Positions 6,538 to 44,347 of a DNA stretch of 44,347 nt are shown piece by piece. Positions within the stretch are counted from its first letter, which is position 1. Every line of letters begins with the position of its first letter. The position numbers were made by a program, and so were the translations under genes. The DNA comes from a virus (taxonomy: Duplodnaviria > Heunggongvirae > Uroviricota > Caudoviricetes): the IMG/VR virus record IMGVR_UViG_2627853983_000003. One strand, given 5' to 3'. The notes beneath the pieces were generated by a model. The model searched no databases. It worked only from the letters and a program-made list of their open reading frames with translations, and was not told where the DNA came from.

Positions 6538-6595
6538 AAAAAGGGCGGCAGAGCAGTCACGGAGTAAAACTGATACCGCCAAACGTCACCAGAAA
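6538..6595 (-). ncRNA. dicF: DicF small RNA (ftsZ-targeting, Hfq-dependent), processed from the dicB-operon transcript
   Basis: Seen: minus strand reads TTTCTGGTGACGTTTGGCGGTATCAGTTTTACTCCGTGACTGCTCTGCCGCCCTTTTT, ending in a GC stem plus U-run. This matches my recollection of E. coli DicF and sits in the ~460-bp ORF-free, hairpin-rich gap between ydfC and dicB. Ends approximate because DicF is cut from a precursor. Confidence 0.7.
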
Positions 6596-12954: not shown

Positions 12955-13079
12955 TTTTATGGATCACCTTTCTGATTGATTTCATATTGGCGAGGTGACG
13001 TGAGTTAAGTAGAATGGCTGCGGGTGCTTGAGGCTATCTGTCTCAGGCATGAACACTGAAAGGCAGATAGAGAAAAGCC

Positions 13080-13150
13080 CCAGTTAACATTTCGCGTCCT
13101 GCAAGACGCTTAACATTAATCTGAGGCCCAATCTATGTCTCACAAATGTA
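13080..13150 (-). ncRNA. Putative Sok-like antisense RNA of the hok/mok locus
   Basis: Inference from locus architecture: hok loci carry a short antisense RNA across the mok translation start. Seen: candidate minus-strand promoter (TTGCCT-17-TAACCT) around 13155-13185 firing across the mok start. Boundaries are approximate. Confidence 0.3.
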
Positions 13151-13191
13151 GGTTAGCCTCTTACGTGCCGAAAGGCAAGGGGAAGCAGGCT

Positions 13192-13347
13192 ATGAAGCAG
13201 CAAAAGGCGATGTTAATCGCCCTGATCGTCATCTGTTTAACCGTCATAGTGACGGCACTGGTAACGAGGAAAGACCTCTGCGAGGTACGACTCCGAACCG
13301 GCCAGACGGAGGTCGCTGTCTTCACAGCTTACGAACCTGAGGAGTAA
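13192..13347 (+). CDS. hok: Hok-family type I toxin (51 aa); the in-frame upstream extension from ATG 13135 is the mok reading frame
   Basis: Seen: MKQQKAMLIALIVICLTVIVTALVTRKDLCEVRLRTGQTEVAVFTAYEPEE, a Hok/Gef-family sequence as I recall it; the 70-codon mok-like ORF (13135-13347) contains it in the same frame. Confidence 0.8.
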   Translation: MKQQKAMLIALIVICLTVIVTALVTRKDLCEVRLRTGQTEVAVFTAYEPEE

Positions 13348-17716: not shown

Positions 17717-17792
17717 CGGCCCTTTAGCTCAGTGGTGAGAGCGAGCGACTCATAATCGCCAGGTCGCTGGTTCAAATCCAGCAAGGGCCACC
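17717..17792 (+). tRNA. tRNA with CAU anticodon (Met, or Ile2 if lysidine-modified)
   Basis: Seen: hand-folded cloverleaf with 7-bp acceptor stem GGCCCTT/AAGGGCC, D-arm GCTC-AGTGGTGA-GAGC, anticodon loop CTCATAA (anticodon CAT), T-arm GCTGG-TTCAAAT-CCAGC, encoded CCA. Confidence 0.85.
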
Positions 17793-17893: not shown

Positions 17894-17970
17894 GCGTTGT
17901 TAGCTCAGCCGGACAGAGCAATTGCCTTCTAAGCAATCGGTCACTGGTTCGAATCCAGTACAGCGCGCCA
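17894..17970 (+). tRNA. tRNA-Arg (anticodon UCU)
   Basis: Seen: hand-folded cloverleaf with acceptor GCGTTGT/ACAGCGC (one G-U pair), anticodon arm ATTGC-CTTCTAA-GCAAT (anticodon TCT), T-arm ACTGG-TTCGAAT-CCAGT, encoded CCA. Confidence 0.85.
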
Positions 17971-18434: not shown

Positions 18435-18825
18435 ATACATATCTGGATTATCACCGGTTACGGTAAAAAGTGATTGCTTACTGTTTTTGTGAATGGCATT
18501 GCTGCAGCCGGATAATGTCAGTGCTGGCTGACGGTGTGCTGGTGGCGGGTGTGGTGGTTGTTGCTTTCCCGTTGCTGAAAAAGAAAACGCCAGACTGTTA
18601 GCCGGGTATCAGTTAGCGGGAGAAATTTTTAAATACTTCACAATTCAGGCGGTTGATTGTTGTCTGGTTTGCGGGGAGTTTGTTAAAAGAAACTGGCATG
18701 GTGAATCCCCCTGTGCGGAGGGGCAATCAGCGAGTAGGTATATGGGATAATCGCGGATTCAGGTGCTGGTACTGAATTCACCGGGAGGCACCCGGCACCA
18801 TGCAATGGCACATAGCGCCACTCTC

Positions 18826-18854
18826 CAGCCCCTCTCCGGAGGGGCTGTTTATAT
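18826..18854 (+). terminator. Intrinsic terminator inside the cargo island
   Basis: Seen: CAGCCCCTC-tccg-GAGGGGCTG 9-bp stem followed by TTTATATTGATTTT. Confidence 0.5.
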
Positions 18855-18881
18855 TGATTTTGTCAGATGTGAGTAAACTCC

Positions 18882-39664: not shown

Positions 39665-40408
39665 ATGACACAGACTGAATCAGCGATTCTGGCGCATGCC
39701 CGGCGGTGTGCGCCTGCGGAGTCGTGCGGCTTCGTGATAAGCACGTCGGAGGGGGAGTGGTATATCCCTTGTGTGAATATTTCTGCAGAGCCGGAGGCGT
39801 ATTTTCGTATCGCACCGGAAGACTGGCTGCGGGCAGAGATGCAGGGGGAGATTGTGGCACTGGTCCACAGTCATCCCGGTGGGCTGCCCTGGCTGAGCGA
39901 GGCTGACCGGCGGCTGCAGATAAAAAGCGCACTGCCCTGGTGGCTGGTCTGCCGGGGTGACATTCACAAATTCCGCTGTGTGCCACATCTGACAGGACGG
40001 CGCTTTGAGCACGGGGTGACGGACTGTTACACGCTGTTCCGGGATGCTTATCATCTGGCGGGGACTGAAATGCCGGATTTTCATCGCGAGGATGACTGGT
40101 GGCGCAACGGTCAGAACCTTTACCTGGACAATATGGCGGTCACCGGCTTTTACCGGGTGCCCCTGTCCTCTGCACAGGCGGGCGATATTCTGCTGTGCTG
40201 CTTTGGTGCTTCGGTACCGAACCATGCCGCCATTTACTGCGGCAACGGTGAGCTGCTTCACCATCTGCCTGAACAACTGAGTAAACGGGAGAGGTATTCC
40301 GAAAAATGGCAACGACGAACGCATTCTGTCTGGCGTCACCGCCACTGGCACGCATCTGCCTTCACGGGGATTTACAACGATTTGGCCGCCGCCTCAGCCT
40401 GTATGTGA
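39665..40408 (+). CDS. Tail assembly protein K (MPN/JAB plus NlpC/P60-like domains)
   Basis: Seen: MTQTESAILAHARRCAPAESCGFV...HSHPGG (JAB-like) and a C-terminal Cys/His region; the ORF-track start at 39404 is an upstream in-frame extension overlapping L. Confidence 0.85.
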   Translation: MTQTESAILAHARRCAPAESCGFVISTSEGEWYIPCVNISAEPEAYFRIAPEDWLRAEMQGEIVALVHSHPGGLPWLSEADRRLQIKSALPWWLVCRGDIHKFRCVPHLTGRRFEHGVTDCYTLFRDAYHLAGTEMPDFHREDDWWRNGQNLYLDNMAVTGFYRVPLSSAQAGDILLCCFGASVPNHAAIYCGNGELLHHLPEQLSKRERYSEKWQRRTHSVWRHRHWHASAFTGIYNDLAAASACM

Positions 40409-40986
40409 ACACGGCAGCGGAAGCCATCCGGGCGCTGTCGTTACAGGTGCCGGGCTTTCGCCGTCAGATGAACGAAGGCTGGTACCAGATACGTATTGCC
40501 GGTTATGACACGGCACCGGAGGCGGTGTACGCCCGTCTTCACGAACAGCTGGGTGAGGGAACGGTCATCCATATTGTGCCGCGACTGGCCGGGGCCGGAA
40601 AGGGTGGACTGCAGATTGTGCTGGGGGCGGCAGCCATCGTGGGCTCTTTCTTCACTGCCGGGGCATCAATGGCGTTATGGGGTTCAGCCCTGGCAGCCGG
40701 TGGTTTTTCTGCCACCACGATGCTGTTTTCACTTGGAGCCAGCATGATTCTGGGCGGTGTGGCCCAGATGCTGGCCCCGAAGGCAAAAACACCGGATTAC
40801 CGCGCAACGGATAACGGCAGACAGAACACGTACTTTTCCTCGCTGGATAACATGATTGCCCAGGGGAACCCGATGCCGGTGCCTTACGGGGAAATGCTGG
40901 TTGGCTCCCGCCGTATATCCCAGGACATCAGCACCCGTGATGAAGGCGGGGGCGGAACGGTCGTGGTTATCGGGCGACAGGGATAA
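40306..40986 (+). CDS. Tail assembly protein I
   Basis: Seen: 226 aa with ubiquitin-like N-terminus and Gly/Ala-rich hydrophobic C-terminus, typical of lambda gpI; overlaps the K 3' end. Confidence 0.85.
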   Translation: MATTNAFCLASPPLARICLHGDLQRFGRRLSLYVNTAAEAIRALSLQVPGFRRQMNEGWYQIRIAGYDTAPEAVYARLHEQLGEGTVIHIVPRLAGAGKGGLQIVLGAAAIVGSFFTAGASMALWGSALAAGGFSATTMLFSLGASMILGGVAQMLAPKAKTPDYRATDNGRQNTYFSSLDNMIAQGNPMPVPYGEMLVGSRRISQDISTRDEGGGGTVVVIGRQG

Positions 40987-40990
40987 AACA

Positions 40991-41024
40991 TAAAAAAATC
41001 CCGCAGTGATCGCGGAGCTGCGGG
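40991..41024 (-). terminator. Intrinsic terminator (minus strand) in the I-J intergenic insert
   Basis: Seen: minus strand reads CCCGCAG-cuccgcgauca-CUGCGGG followed by AUUUUUUU. Confidence 0.55.
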
Positions 41025-41098
41025 GACAGACAAATGAAGATCAATGTTAAGGAGTTGTTTTTGTTACTCGGGCAAAAAAACACTAACGCAGCGAAATT
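40992..41098 (-). ncRNA. Candidate small RNA (about 105 nt) with its own promoter and terminator, between tail genes I and J
   Basis: Seen: minus-strand near-consensus promoter TTCACA-16-TATAAT (-10 at about 41105-41110) and an intrinsic terminator ending near 40992, with no SD-preceded ORF between. The transcript contains GUAACAAAAACAACUCC. All inference from sequence. Confidence 0.35.
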
Positions 41099-41195
41099 AT
41101 AAGCGCCACAGTCAGTGTGTGAAAATGTGAAGATATTCAGAATTTTTATGCCATTACCGGTTTTAACCAACAGGATTATCGGTGGGCATGAAAGA

Positions 41196-41231
41196 AAACC
41201 CCGGTATCTGCTGATACCGGGGTTTCTCTTT
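41196..41231. terminator. Bidirectional stem-loop (10-bp perfect stem) flanked by A-run and T-run, upstream of J
   Basis: Seen: AAA-CCCCGGTATC-tgct-GATACCGGGG-TTTCTCTTT. Confidence 0.5.
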
Positions 41232-41328
41232 AGCATGGCAGAAATGTGTTTCATGCTTTTCGGGCGAAGGATATCCGACTTCTGTACGGAATGGCAAGTG
41301 GCGGTTAATTTATTCAGGGGAAGGCTGT

Positions 41329-44300
41329 ATGGGAAAAGGTGGCGGTAAGGCACACACGCCTCGTGAGGCGAAGGATAATCTCAAATCCACGCAGATGATG
41401 AGCGTGATTGATGCGATTGGTGAGGGACCGATAGAAGGTCCGGTGAAGGGACTGCAGAGTATTCTGGTGAACAAAACCCCACTGACGGACACGGACGGCA
41501 ATCCCGTGATACACGGTGTGACGGCGGTCTGGCGCGCCGGGGAGCAGGAGCAGACACCACCGGAAGGCTTTGAGTCCTCCGGAGCTGAAACCGGACTGGG
41601 CGTGGAAGTGACGAAGGCAAAACCGGTGACGCGCACCATTACGTCCGCGAACATTGACCGCCTGCGGGTTACCTTCGGGGTGCAGTCACTGGTGGAGACC
41701 ACCTCAAAGGGTGACCGTAACCCGGCATCCGTCCGCCTGCTGATTCAGTTACAGCGTAACGGTAACTGGGTGACAGAAAAGGACGTCACCATTAACGGCA
41801 AGACCACCTCACAGTTCCTGGCCTCGGTGATTCTGGATAATCTGCCTCCCCGGCCCTTTAACATCCGGATGGTCAGGGAGACGGCGGACAGCACCACGGA
41901 CCAGCTGCAGAATAAGACGCTGTGGTCGTCATACACCGAAATCATCGATGTGAAACAGTGCTACCCGAACACGGCCATTGTGGGGCTGCAGGTGGATGCG
42001 GAGCAGTTCGGCGGCCAGCAGATGACGGTGAACTACCATATCCGCGGTCGCATCATCCAGGTGCCGTCAAACTATGACCCGGAAAAACGCACGTATAGTG
42101 GTATCTGGGACGGCAGTCTGAAACCGGCATACAGCAACAACCCGGCCTGGTGTCTGTGGGACATGCTGACTCACCCGCGCTACGGCATGGGAAAACGTCT
42201 GGGGGCGGCGGATGTGGACAAGTGGGCGCTGTATGCCATCGGGCAGTACTGCGACCAGACGGTCCCGGATGGTTTCGGGGGGACCGAGCCGCGGATGACC
42301 TTTAATGCGTACCTGGCACAACAGCGTAAGGCGTGGGACGTTCTCAGTGATTTCTGCTCTGCGATGCGCTGTATGCCGGTATGGAACGGTCAGACGCTGA
42401 CGTTCGTTCAGGACCGCCCGTCGGATGTGGTGTGGCCGTACACCAACAGCGATGTGGTGGTGGATGATAACGGCGTGGGATTCCGCTACAGCTTCAGTGC
42501 CCTGAAGGACCGGCACACGGCGGTGGAGGTGAATTACACCGACCCGCAGAACGGCTGGCAGACCTCCACGGAACTGGTGGAAGACCCGGAAGCCATACTG
42601 CGCTACGGACGCAACCTGCTGAAGATGGACGCGTTCGGCTGTACCAGCCGCGGTCAGGCCCACCGTGCCGGACTGTGGGTGATAAAGACCGAACTGCTGG
42701 AAACGCAGACGGTGGATTTCACGCTCGGGTCTCAGGGGCTGCGGCACACACCCGGTGACATTATTGAAATCTGTGATAATGACTATGCCGGGACCCTGAC
42801 CGGCGGACGTGTCCTGTCCATTGATGCTGCCACCCGCACCCTGACGCTGGACCGTGAGGTTACCCTGCCGGAGACAGGTACATCGGCGGTGAACCTGATT
42901 AACGGCAGCGGTAAGCCGGTGAGTGTGGACATCACCGCACACCCCGCGCCGGACCGGATACAGGTCAGTACCCTGCCTGATGGTGTGGAGACATACGGGG
43001 TGTGGGGACTCTCCCTGCCGTCACTGCGCCGTCGCCTGTTCCGCTGTGTCTCCATCCGGGAAAACACGGACGGCACCTTTGCCATCACGGCGGTGCAGCA
43101 CGTACCGGAAAAAGAAGCCATCGTGGATAACGGTGCCCGCTTTGAGCCGCAGTCAGGTTCCCTGAACAGCGTCATCCCACCGGCAGTGCAGCACCTGACG
43201 GTGGAGGTGAGCGCAGCTGACGGCCAGTATCTGGCGCAGGCGAAATGGGACACGCCGCGGGTGGTGAAGGGTGTGCGCTTCAGTCTGCGCCTGACCAGTG
43301 GTAAGGGAACGGATGCCAGACTGGTGACCACCGCCATCACCGCAGACACGGAGCACCGTTTCAGCGGCCTGCCGCTCGGGGAATACACCCTGACGGTGCG
43401 GGCGATAAACAGCTATGGCCAGCAGGGTGAACCTGCCACCACCACCTTCCGGATTGCCGCACCGGCAGCACCGTCGCGGATTGAGCTGACGCCGGGCTAT
43501 TTTCAGATAACCGCAACGCCACATCTTGCCGTTTATGACCCGACGGTACAGTTTGAGTTCTGGTTCTCGGAAAAGCGGATTGCGGATATCAGGCAGGTTG
43601 AAGCCAGCGCGCGTTATCTTGGTACGGCGCTGTACTGGATAGCCGCCAGTATCAATATCAAACCGGGCCATGATTATTATTTTTACATTCGCAGTGTGAA
43701 CACCGTTGGCAAATCGGCATTTGTGGAGGCTGTTGGCCAGCCGAGTGATGATGCATCCGGCTATCTGGATTTTTTCAAAGGAGAGATAGGGAAAACCCAT
43801 CTGGCTCAGGAGTTGTGGACGCAGATTGATAACGGTCAGCTTGCGCCTGACCTGGCTGAAATCAGGACGTCCATTACGGATGTCAGCAATGAAATCACGC
43901 AGACCGTCAATAAGAAACTGGAAGACCAGAGTGCAGCGATCCAGCAGATACAGAAGGTTCAGGTTGATACAAATAATAACCTGAACAGCATGTGGGCTGT
44001 GAAGCTGCAGCAGATGCAGGACGGACGCCTTTATATCGCGGGTATTGGTGCCGGTATTGAGAATACCCCTGACGGTATGCAGAGTCAGGTGCTGCTGGCG
44101 GCGGACAGGATTGCGATGATTAATCCTGCGAATGGCAATACAAAGCCGATGTTTGTTGGGCAGGGCGATCAGATATTCATGAACGAAGTGTTCCTGAAAT
44201 ATCTGACGGCTCCCACCATTACCAGCGGTGGCAATCCCCCAACGTTTTCACTGACACCTGATGGTCGACTTTCTGCGAGAAATGCGGATATCAGCGGTAA

Positions 44301-44347
44301 CGTGAATGCGAACTCCGGGACGCTCAATAATGTCACGATTAAAGAAC
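41329..44347 (+). CDS. Host specificity / central tail fibre protein J (partial, continues beyond the window)
   Basis: Seen: [39 protein letters not shown]... is near-collinear with my recollection of lambda J over about 1000 aa; no stop before the window end. GGGGAAGG Shine-Dalgarno upstream. Confidence 0.9.

Follow-up and report, generated by a model that had tools for sequence, protein, structure and literature searches.

An I-J tail gene insert in E. coli lambdoid prophages

In the window (the whole 44,347-nt stretch of viral DNA analyzed here), the tail assembly gene I (40405..40986, plus strand) and the tail tip or host specificity gene J (41330..44347, plus strand, running off the window end) flank a spacer in which the RefSeq annotation of an identical locus records no feature. 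Both gene assignments follow that annotation, that of gene I together with our list of open reading frames (ORFs). Because the I-J gap measures just 18 to 60 bp in distant lambda-like prophages, the spacer of 342 to 348 bp found here represents an insert, as had been proposed in a preliminary description of this DNA. Spacers of the window type were present in 1,612 of 5,426 complete E. coli genomes (~30%) and were located between I and J in every record inspected. Comparison of records revealed that the J-proximal segment of this spacer (41152..41329 in the window) is specific to the long type; it was at least 99% identical in 1,442 of 1,451 E. coli records and always adjoined J.

We extracted I-J spacers from 91 loci, which provided 36 distinct sequences for comparison. 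This allele set was derived from a scan of viral contigs, with a species-wide genome scan giving few useful loci. The conservation of the elements described below shows that the unit is more than a chance occurrence.

A minus-strand promoter and an invariant terminator within the insert

The preliminary description had interpreted the spacer as a free-standing small-RNA gene with its own near-consensus minus-strand promoter (TTCACA-16-TATAAT) and an intrinsic terminator about 105 nt past it. We observed both signals. The -35 hexamer TTCACA (41123..41118, minus strand) and the -10 hexamer TATAAT (41101..41096, minus strand) are separated by a 16-nt spacer and together match 11 of 12 consensus positions, with the -10 hexamer lying at a fixed distance from the conserved sequence CTGCGTTA. 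Promoter-like sites numbered 3 in a 1.3-kb region around the locus, against 0.8 ± 0.9 in shuffled sequences. Among the 36 distinct spacers, the -10 hexamer reads TATAAT in 26, AATAAT in 4, TATCAT in 3, GATAAT in 2, and GATAAA in 1. The Sakai and D alleles have a different sequence in place of the TTCACA -35 hexamer, and a second TTCACA located 8 nt upstream is invariant. From the position of the -10 hexamer, transcription is predicted to start at about 41089 (a G).

Conservation across the spacer is highest in a block upstream of the -35 hexamer (41123..41144), which contains a CRP-like site, TGTGA-N6-TCAGA (41126-41141, centered at 41133.5). This site matches 9 of 10 core positions, and no other sequence in the 44-kb window comes within one mismatch of TGTGA-N6-TCACA. 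None of the 36 distinct spacers differs in either half-site, and the 6 nt between the half-sites take four forms. The center of the site falls at -44.5 relative to the predicted start, a noncanonical position for activation.

Spacer comparison and the sequence itself place the intrinsic terminator at 40993..41024 (minus strand; stem, 41000-41024), ~100 nt downstream of the promoter. It consists of a CCCGCAG/CTGCGGG stem with an 11-nt loop, followed by seven U residues in the RNA (a run of seven T on the minus strand). All 36 distinct spacers retain an intact stem and T-run, with only the loop varying, and the terminator alone was predicted as a structure shared across alleles. We found no covariation in the terminator stem in the allele alignment, a comparison that is uninformative for a stem that never varies. 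A 5' hairpin between a U-run and an A-run was not predicted consistently across alleles, and the RNA as a whole did not fold more stably than shuffled sequence (z = -1.2).

A second hairpin with a perfect 13-bp stem and a 4-nt loop (41196-41208 and 41213-41225; z = -6.2) lies between the promoter and J. The preliminary description had recorded this element as a 10-bp bidirectional hairpin; its presence and bidirectional character stand, and the length is corrected to 13 bp. Since A/T-rich runs occupy both of its flanks, termination is possible in both directions, and the hairpin may insulate the sRNA promoter from J. Spacers of a short type carry a different hairpin at the equivalent place that terminates plus-strand transcription, such that both kinds of J-proximal segment bear a hairpin of this polarity just before J.

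The insert carries pasB in a form fitting PasB-2

PasB was found by RIL-seq in enteropathogenic E. coli (EPEC) E2348/69 (Pearl Mizrahi et al. 2021, PMC8550237), in which it is an 83-nt RNA encoded on the minus strand of prophage PP6 (NC_011601 1466343..1466261; PMC8550237, Table S6). Alignment to this RNA defined a mature PasB-type sRNA of 83 nt in the window (40992..41074, minus strand) that is identical to PasB at 82 of 83 positions, the sole difference being an A instead of a C at position 27 (window 41048). The published Northern probe for PasB, AATCCCGCAGTGATCGCGGAGCT (PMC8550237), matches the window plus strand exactly at 40998-41020. Furthermore, the E2348/69 gene is flanked by a tail assembly gene and gpJ and, as in the window, is antisense to them. 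The 82/83 match, the exact probe match, and the common locus and strand together indicate that the window carries a one-base variant of pasB. PasB and PasB-2 are distinguished by a single change at position 27, and the E2348/69 form of PasB is not the commonest one (Zhu, Shabalina and Storz, bioRxiv 10.64898/2026.05.13.724894); as judged from its sequence, the window copy fits the PasB-2 variant.

The two copies agree in I-J locus, strand, and terminator but differ in their surroundings. The E2348/69 gene resides in a short spacer of 240 bp with a different J-adjacent hairpin, whereas the window gene resides in the long spacer of 342 to 348 bp with the 13-bp bidirectional hairpin. The small-RNA gene foreseen in the preliminary description is thus identified as a feature already described, pasB in a form that fits PasB-2, homologous to EcOnc22-24 of enterohemorrhagic E. 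coli (EHEC). The gene is cargo (a "moron") on the strand opposite the tail genes in a subgroup of E. coli lambdoid prophages. We consider it very probable that the I-J insert is the pasB gene in the form fitting PasB-2 and that its product is an sRNA that depends on Hfq and acts in trans by base pairing. No new explanation is required for the locus, which should be annotated as pasB (variant PasB-2).

Other routes to an identity did not lead to this gene. The Rfam check for a known EHEC sRNA family that had been suggested in the preliminary description gave no match at the locus when the whole window was scanned at gathering thresholds, and a permissive scan of 40900-41400 gave nothing at the locus, the best matches being weak and limited to the hairpin. 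Literature searches with sequence strings and tail-gene keywords did not find the locus. This widespread gene, present in ~30% of complete E. coli genomes, is neither in Rfam nor annotated in any of the RefSeq and phage records that we inspected.

According to published data, mature PasB begins at the equivalent of window 41074, 15 nt downstream of the predicted transcription start, and the 5'-most read of PasB in the RIL-seq rows consulted starts at 1466344, equivalent to window 41075. This offset suggests one of two possibilities: the RNA is processed, or our assignment of the start from the promoter is off. With the promoter geometry as a guide, 41075..41089 (minus strand) would be a possible 5' extension of the primary transcript.

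EcOnc22, EcOnc23, and EcOnc24 are EHEC homologues of PasB

EcOnc22 (Sp15), EcOnc23 (Sp14), and EcOnc24 (Sp11) were reported as homologous Hfq-crosslinked sRNA candidates in EHEC Sakai (Tree et al. 2014, PMC4104026, Table S2), with EcOnc22 detected at ~85 nt on a Northern blot and destabilized without hfq (PMC4104026). Because that work used an older version of the Sakai genome, we calibrated the coordinate offset in two ways. An RNase E CLASH read assigned to EcOnc23, GCCTGAAAAATAACTCCATAACGTTAATCTTCA (PMC5286369, Table EV7), matches the Sakai I-J antisense RNA within its body and sets the shift between genome versions at +137, and a shift of about +136 is required to bring the StxS/EcOnc15 peak into register with the tR' terminator. 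With this correction, the Hfq-CRAC peaks of EcOnc22, EcOnc23, and EcOnc24 fall in J-I gaps of the current Sakai record on the strand opposite the tail genes. Therefore, EcOnc22-24 are RNA from the Sakai version of the I-J promoter-terminator unit.

The window RNA and the Sakai EcOnc22 allele are 74% identical, as homologous alleles rather than the same RNA. EcOnc22-24 have in common with the window gene the I-J position, the strand, the terminator stem, and the block upstream of the promoter, and the RNAs of both carry the motifs AACUCC and UUAAUCUUCAU. In contrast, they differ just 5' of the terminator (CAUCGUUCUCUCC against CAUUUGUCUGUCC), so their targets probably differ as well, and the -35 hexamer of EcOnc22-24 is weaker than that of the window. 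The PasB entry in the table of new sRNAs gives no EHEC homologue (PMC8550237, Table S6), and a 2021 review still listed the targets of EcOnc22-24 as unknown. On the sequence comparison, PasB and EcOnc22-24 are alleles of one family, a link newly drawn in the present analysis. As one family, the EPEC data on PasB and the EHEC data on EcOnc22-24, which come from two literatures, can be pooled. The RNA thus belongs, with PasB and EcOnc22-24, to the prophage sRNAs of EHEC and EPEC that bind Hfq. In placing it with prophage sRNAs known from EHEC the preliminary description was correct, but its choice of family and partner was not.

CLASH chimeras of EcOnc22-24 with yjbJ and ECs5349 were set aside as too weak (1 to 2 reads; p ~0.04 to 0.34), and we found no complementarity of the alleles to RNAs of the AgvB region of Sakai Sp10. 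Three other sRNAs proved to be unrelated: EcOnc54 (Sakai Sp6) occupies a different gap of the tail region, EsrF is an sRNA of the glnA 3' UTR, and HnrS (EcOnc10-12) is a different sRNA of the late region.

PasB is unlike AgvB in sequence, position, length, and predicted GcvB pairing

A more specific proposal in the preliminary description was that the RNA could be an AgvB-like anti-sRNA. Such an RNA would mimic a GcvB target, sequester the R1 seed, and derepress amino acid and peptide transporters. The sequences on which this proposal was built do exist. The RNA contains the A/C-rich motif ACAAAAACAAC (41064..41054, minus strand), and the R1 sequence given there, GUUGUGUUUG, is present in K-12 gcvB. 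Like AgvB, the RNA is a prophage-encoded Hfq binder, and the main PasB partner in the RIL-seq rows is another small prophage RNA, indicating that some interplay between sRNAs is real.

However, the pairing itself was at chance level. The duplex of the RNA body with R1, proposed to form with one mismatch, has a predicted energy of -15.4 kcal/mol that was equalled or beaten by 30% of dinucleotide shuffles, against -22.3 kcal/mol for the AgvB-GcvB R1 duplex, which was reached by 3.4% of shuffles. Moreover, ACAAAAACAAC is predicted to pair within the RNA itself with a U7 tract (41076-41082) and is not conserved among alleles, and the GcvB target motif CACAACA is absent from the RNA. E2348/69 PasB bears an identical ACAAAAACAAC motif. 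In the sRNA-sRNA rows consulted for both conditions of the EPEC RIL-seq data, no GcvB-PasB pair occurs, GcvB being paired only with SroC and PasB only with prophage intergenic RNAs (PMC8550237).

The AgvB family also differs from the window RNA in its organization. AgvB and AsxR (RF02702, RF02703) resemble the window RNA as prophage-encoded Hfq binders of pathogenic E. coli that end in an intrinsic terminator and vary in their 5' part, but their sequences are unrelated to it. AgvB, AsxR, and EcOnc03 are 51 to 60 nt long, have a common 3' domain of ~42 nt, and are encoded as convergent pairs downstream of PR'/Q, whereas the window RNA is 83 to 98 nt long and is encoded between I and J. A search of the window for the conserved AgvB/AsxR 3' domain (GUAUCUCAUGC..UUGCCCGAACCCA...) with 3 mismatches allowed returned 0 matches. 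With no similarity to AgvB or AsxR, no Rfam match, and the wrong position and length for the family, the AgvB-like anti-GcvB reading is largely refuted and in our estimation highly improbable. The proposed GcvB link can be dropped.

PasB as an Hfq-dependent, probably trans-acting sRNA

The expression, size, Hfq dependence, and partners described for PasB come from the E2348/69 copy, which is 1 nt different from that of the window. This PasB was validated by Northern blot, and loss of hfq lowered its level by log2 values of -6.8 in the activating and -2.4 in the nonactivating condition (PMC8550237). The level was higher in the nonactivating condition, overnight static LB, than in DMEM (PMC8550237). 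Considering that the CRP-like site is conserved and that PasB is more abundant in LB than in glucose-rich DMEM, the sequence suggests that cAMP-CRP may control the PasB promoter through TGTGA-N6-TCAGA; this control stays a lead because the site, centered at -44.5, is at no canonical activating position.

RIL-seq assigned 37 partners to PasB (PMC8550237), and in the chimera rows of Table S3 that we consulted, PasB occupies the RNA2 position typical of sRNAs (PMC8550237). In these tables, the dominant partner is a plus-strand RNA, pasA.E2348C_0689.IGR (743482-743611), with 774 chimeras in three libraries of the nonactivating condition and 19 in the activating condition (PMC8550237). The next partner listed, pasC.E2348C_1247.IGR (54 chimeras), is the analogous RNA of prophage PP5, and partners from the core genome in the same rows include yhhX (57 chimeras), ygeV, yibT, yhiD, the ydbJ 5' UTR, and yrdD-smg (PMC8550237). 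We located pasA.E2348C_0689.IGR between a sialate esterase gene and a class II holin gene of prophage PP2, where it partially overlaps the 5' end of PasA in antisense orientation and has its own terminator before the holin gene.

The best local pairing between PasB and this dominant partner is a perfect 9-bp helix formed by PasB positions 42-50 (UUGUCUGUC) with GACAGACAG in pasA.E2348C_0689.IGR, which is extended by pairing of PasB positions 17-29 with GUGACGGAUGUUGU. The stretch UUGUCUGUC (41025..41033, minus strand) is single-stranded, lies just 5' of the terminator, and is our candidate seed. Its predicted position agrees with the seed proposed just 5' of the terminator by Zhu et al. (bioRxiv 10.64898/2026.05.13.724894). 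The candidate seed stretch differs between alleles. No homologue of the top RIL-seq partner is present in the window prophage, which has just 160 nt between a 622-amino-acid ORF and the holin gene; this interaction would therefore require that the host harbor another prophage as well.

The best-supported mechanism is that PasB would function as an Hfq-dependent, trans-acting, base-pairing sRNA with its own promoter that is expressed in the lysogen. PasB would be transcribed from its own σ70 promoter independently of the Q-antiterminated late operon, and the transcript would stop at the invariant terminator, whose U-tail may serve as the Hfq handle. The mostly unstructured body of PasB would then pair with other RNAs on Hfq, with likely contacts in the AACUCC region and in UUGUCUGUC, the C/U-rich stretch that adjoins the terminator on its 5' side.

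An antisense location raises a different mode of action, in which the RNA would act in cis by pairing perfectly with the late tail mRNA at the I-J junction and triggering its cleavage or decay. As a result, J expression would be trimmed, or PasB would be titrated away upon prophage induction, and such effects could add to a trans role. Three observations are consistent with action in cis: a perfect complement of the RNA occurs nowhere in the window except in the I-J spacer of the late strand, where it extends over 66 nt; the gene invariably lies on the strand opposite the tail operon; and the EHEC homologue crosslinks to RNase E. However, the paired region is located ~240 nt upstream of the J ribosome-binding site in the window, which makes a direct block of J translation impossible. 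The RIL-seq rows, moreover, give partners in trans, and late mRNA should be scarce in a lysogen while PasB is expressed. On balance, we regard a cis-acting antisense RNA as unlikely and favor PasB pairing in trans.

A small plus-strand ORF is not conserved

According to the preliminary description, the insert holds no credible ORF. A plus-strand ORF that starts at ATGAAGAT does exist, consisting of 22 codons in the window, where it is cut by a TAA, and of 39 to 41 codons in some alleles; the earlier judgment nevertheless stands insofar as this ORF is not conserved. We weighed whether it could be a gene for a small protein, possibly one whose antisense regulator is the minus-strand RNA, as in a type I toxin-antitoxin pair. 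The ORF of 39 to 41 codons (MKINVKELF...NVKIFRNFIPS) is found in four alleles, including the Sakai EcOnc22 locus, where it has a ribosome-binding site of the GGAG type and its stop codon falls immediately ahead of the plus-strand terminator. Its dN/dS was 0.51 in the ORF frame compared with 1.37 and 0.71 in the other two frames, but these values are derived from few sites, and the ORF frame itself guided the alignment.

Of the 36 distinct spacers, 17 lack the ATG, and variation in the length of poly-A runs causes the ORF to end in different frames and at different lengths between near-identical alleles. A search of 5.8 billion proteins returned just 4 tiny clusters, all from E. coli, and no distant relatives. 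We found no plus-strand promoter, and the peptide is without the membrane-spanning segment typical of type I toxins. With the start codon lost in 17/36 spacers, inconsistent frames, and no protein family, we rejected membership in a type I toxin-antitoxin system. It is unlikely that the plus-strand ORF is a real gene, and we consider a small-protein gene very improbable as the explanation of the insert.

Allelic diversity of the I-J unit and its disruption by sodC

The alleles of the RNA body are just 59 to 75% identical to each other. They share AAYUCC and UUAAUCUUC and diverge in the terminator-adjacent stretch. These bodies combine freely with the two kinds of J-proximal segment, with the junction in the conserved block. 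In a broader reading, the I-J gap would house a modular "seed cassette" sRNA gene, with a fixed promoter, CRP-like operator, and terminator and with divergent bodies serving different sets of targets, the main partner of the PasB allele being a small RNA from the leader of the lysis genes in other resident prophages. We put this forward tentatively and regard it as possible but rather doubtful. If true, it would amount to RNA cross-talk between prophages that is tuned by carbon status and affects lysis or late-gene leakiness. The family offers leads in its allele-specific candidate seeds and its conserved CRP-like site. Our own additions to what was described for pasB are minor and comprise the link between PasB and EcOnc22-24, the divergent bodies behind an invariant terminator, the CRP-like site, and the disruption of the unit by sodC in Sp10.

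Sakai Sp10 and one further locus of the allele set (L024) carry sodC on the minus strand between I and J, as a cassette equipped with a promoter and a terminator of its own. These loci bear on a last alternative, that the I-J unit is a nonfunctional relic consisting of a promoter and terminator left behind after loss of a cargo gene such as sodC. The I-J gap is indeed an insertion site for cargo, and both loci hold sodC there on the minus strand, in line with such a history. However, the promoter and terminator of sodC are unrelated to those of PasB. In addition, the cassette replaced the PasB-type promoter in Sp10 and L024, and the 3' part of the sRNA remains downstream, which identifies the sRNA gene as the disrupted party rather than a leftover of this cassette. 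In published data, the PasB/EcOnc22-24 RNA is expressed, bound to Hfq, and engaged with specific partners, and all 36 distinct spacers have retained the promoter and the terminator. We find a relic scarcely conceivable and retain the reading of the unit as a pasB gene. The prophage sodC cargo (Sakai Sp10 ECs_1989) nonetheless parallels pasB as minus-strand I-J cargo that has its own promoter and terminator and is expressed independently of the late operon, differing in that it is protein-coding and has control signals unrelated to those of PasB.

Conservation and rearrangement in the I-J spacer

The spacer between tail genes I and J, which carries the PasB-type sRNA gene, contains two segments with different levels of conservation. 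Across 1442 E. coli records, the J-proximal 178 bp (window 41152-41329) showed an identity of 99% or more, and alleles of the neighboring sRNA body (window 40992-41090) shared only about 70% identity. The recombination junction between the sRNA body and the J-proximal segment lies inside the conserved promoter block. We also observed a sodC cassette on the minus strand of the I-J gap in EHEC Sakai prophage Sp10 (L109:5485-6335) and in the short contig L024 (L024:130-987). In both, the cassette has taken the place of the promoter in a PasB-family gene (B-type allele), and the promoterless 3' part of this gene remains downstream of the sodC terminator.

Within the J-proximal segment, the minus-strand interval 41186-41262 folded much more stably than its shuffles (z = -6.2) and contained a weak promoter-like site, TTGCCA-18-TATCCT (9/12 matches; minus strand), upstream of the 13-bp bidirectional hairpin, with a predicted RNA of about 75 nt. 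This interval could produce a second small transcript or could be just the terminator.

Opposite the sRNA, we detected a plus-strand ORF beginning MKINVKELF (window 41035-41103), which has 22 codons in the window and reaches 39 to 41 codons in a few alleles (L005, L088, L091, and L104). The coding signal in this frame was weak, and the start codon was missing in 17 of the 36 distinct spacer alleles.

Main RNA partner of PasB

Among the rows examined in the published RIL-seq tables (PMC8550237), the main partner of PasB is an unnamed plus-strand RNA, which we located immediately upstream of the holin gene of E2348/69 prophage PP2 (NC_011601 743482-743611, plus strand; locus L112). This RNA has a terminator of its own, overlaps the PasA 5' end in antisense, and seems to correspond to the "dyad" sRNAs EcOnc06 and EcOnc27 of EHEC.

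Related records and other small-RNA elements

The I-J spacer of the window was 100% identical to those of "Enterobacteria phage PPompW" records, including LC567822, and the window is probably an ompW-integrated prophage of an EHEC-type strain. Tail assembly protein I was 90 to 97% identical between this E. coli prophage and three short contigs (L015, L017, and L024) labeled Streptomyces flavalbus, Parendozoicomonas haliclonae, and a Clostridiales MAG, all of which most likely represent contamination within their labeled assemblies.

Elsewhere in the prophage, two plus-strand tRNA genes (17718-17790 and 17894-17967) are closely followed by a full-length Rfam match to STnc100 (18667-18856, plus strand; 132 bits), an RNA related to PasD sRNAs, which are located near Q (Zhu et al., bioRxiv 10.64898/2026.05.13.724894). 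A full-length match to the sok antitoxin RNA (13022-13197, plus strand; 120 bits) implies a putative hok/sok-type module within the prophage. Full-length Rfam matches on the minus strand to DicF (6543-6594), C4 antisense RNA (1430-1517), and IsrK (1541-1615), added to the matches above and to PasB, therefore place at least six known small-RNA elements in one prophage.
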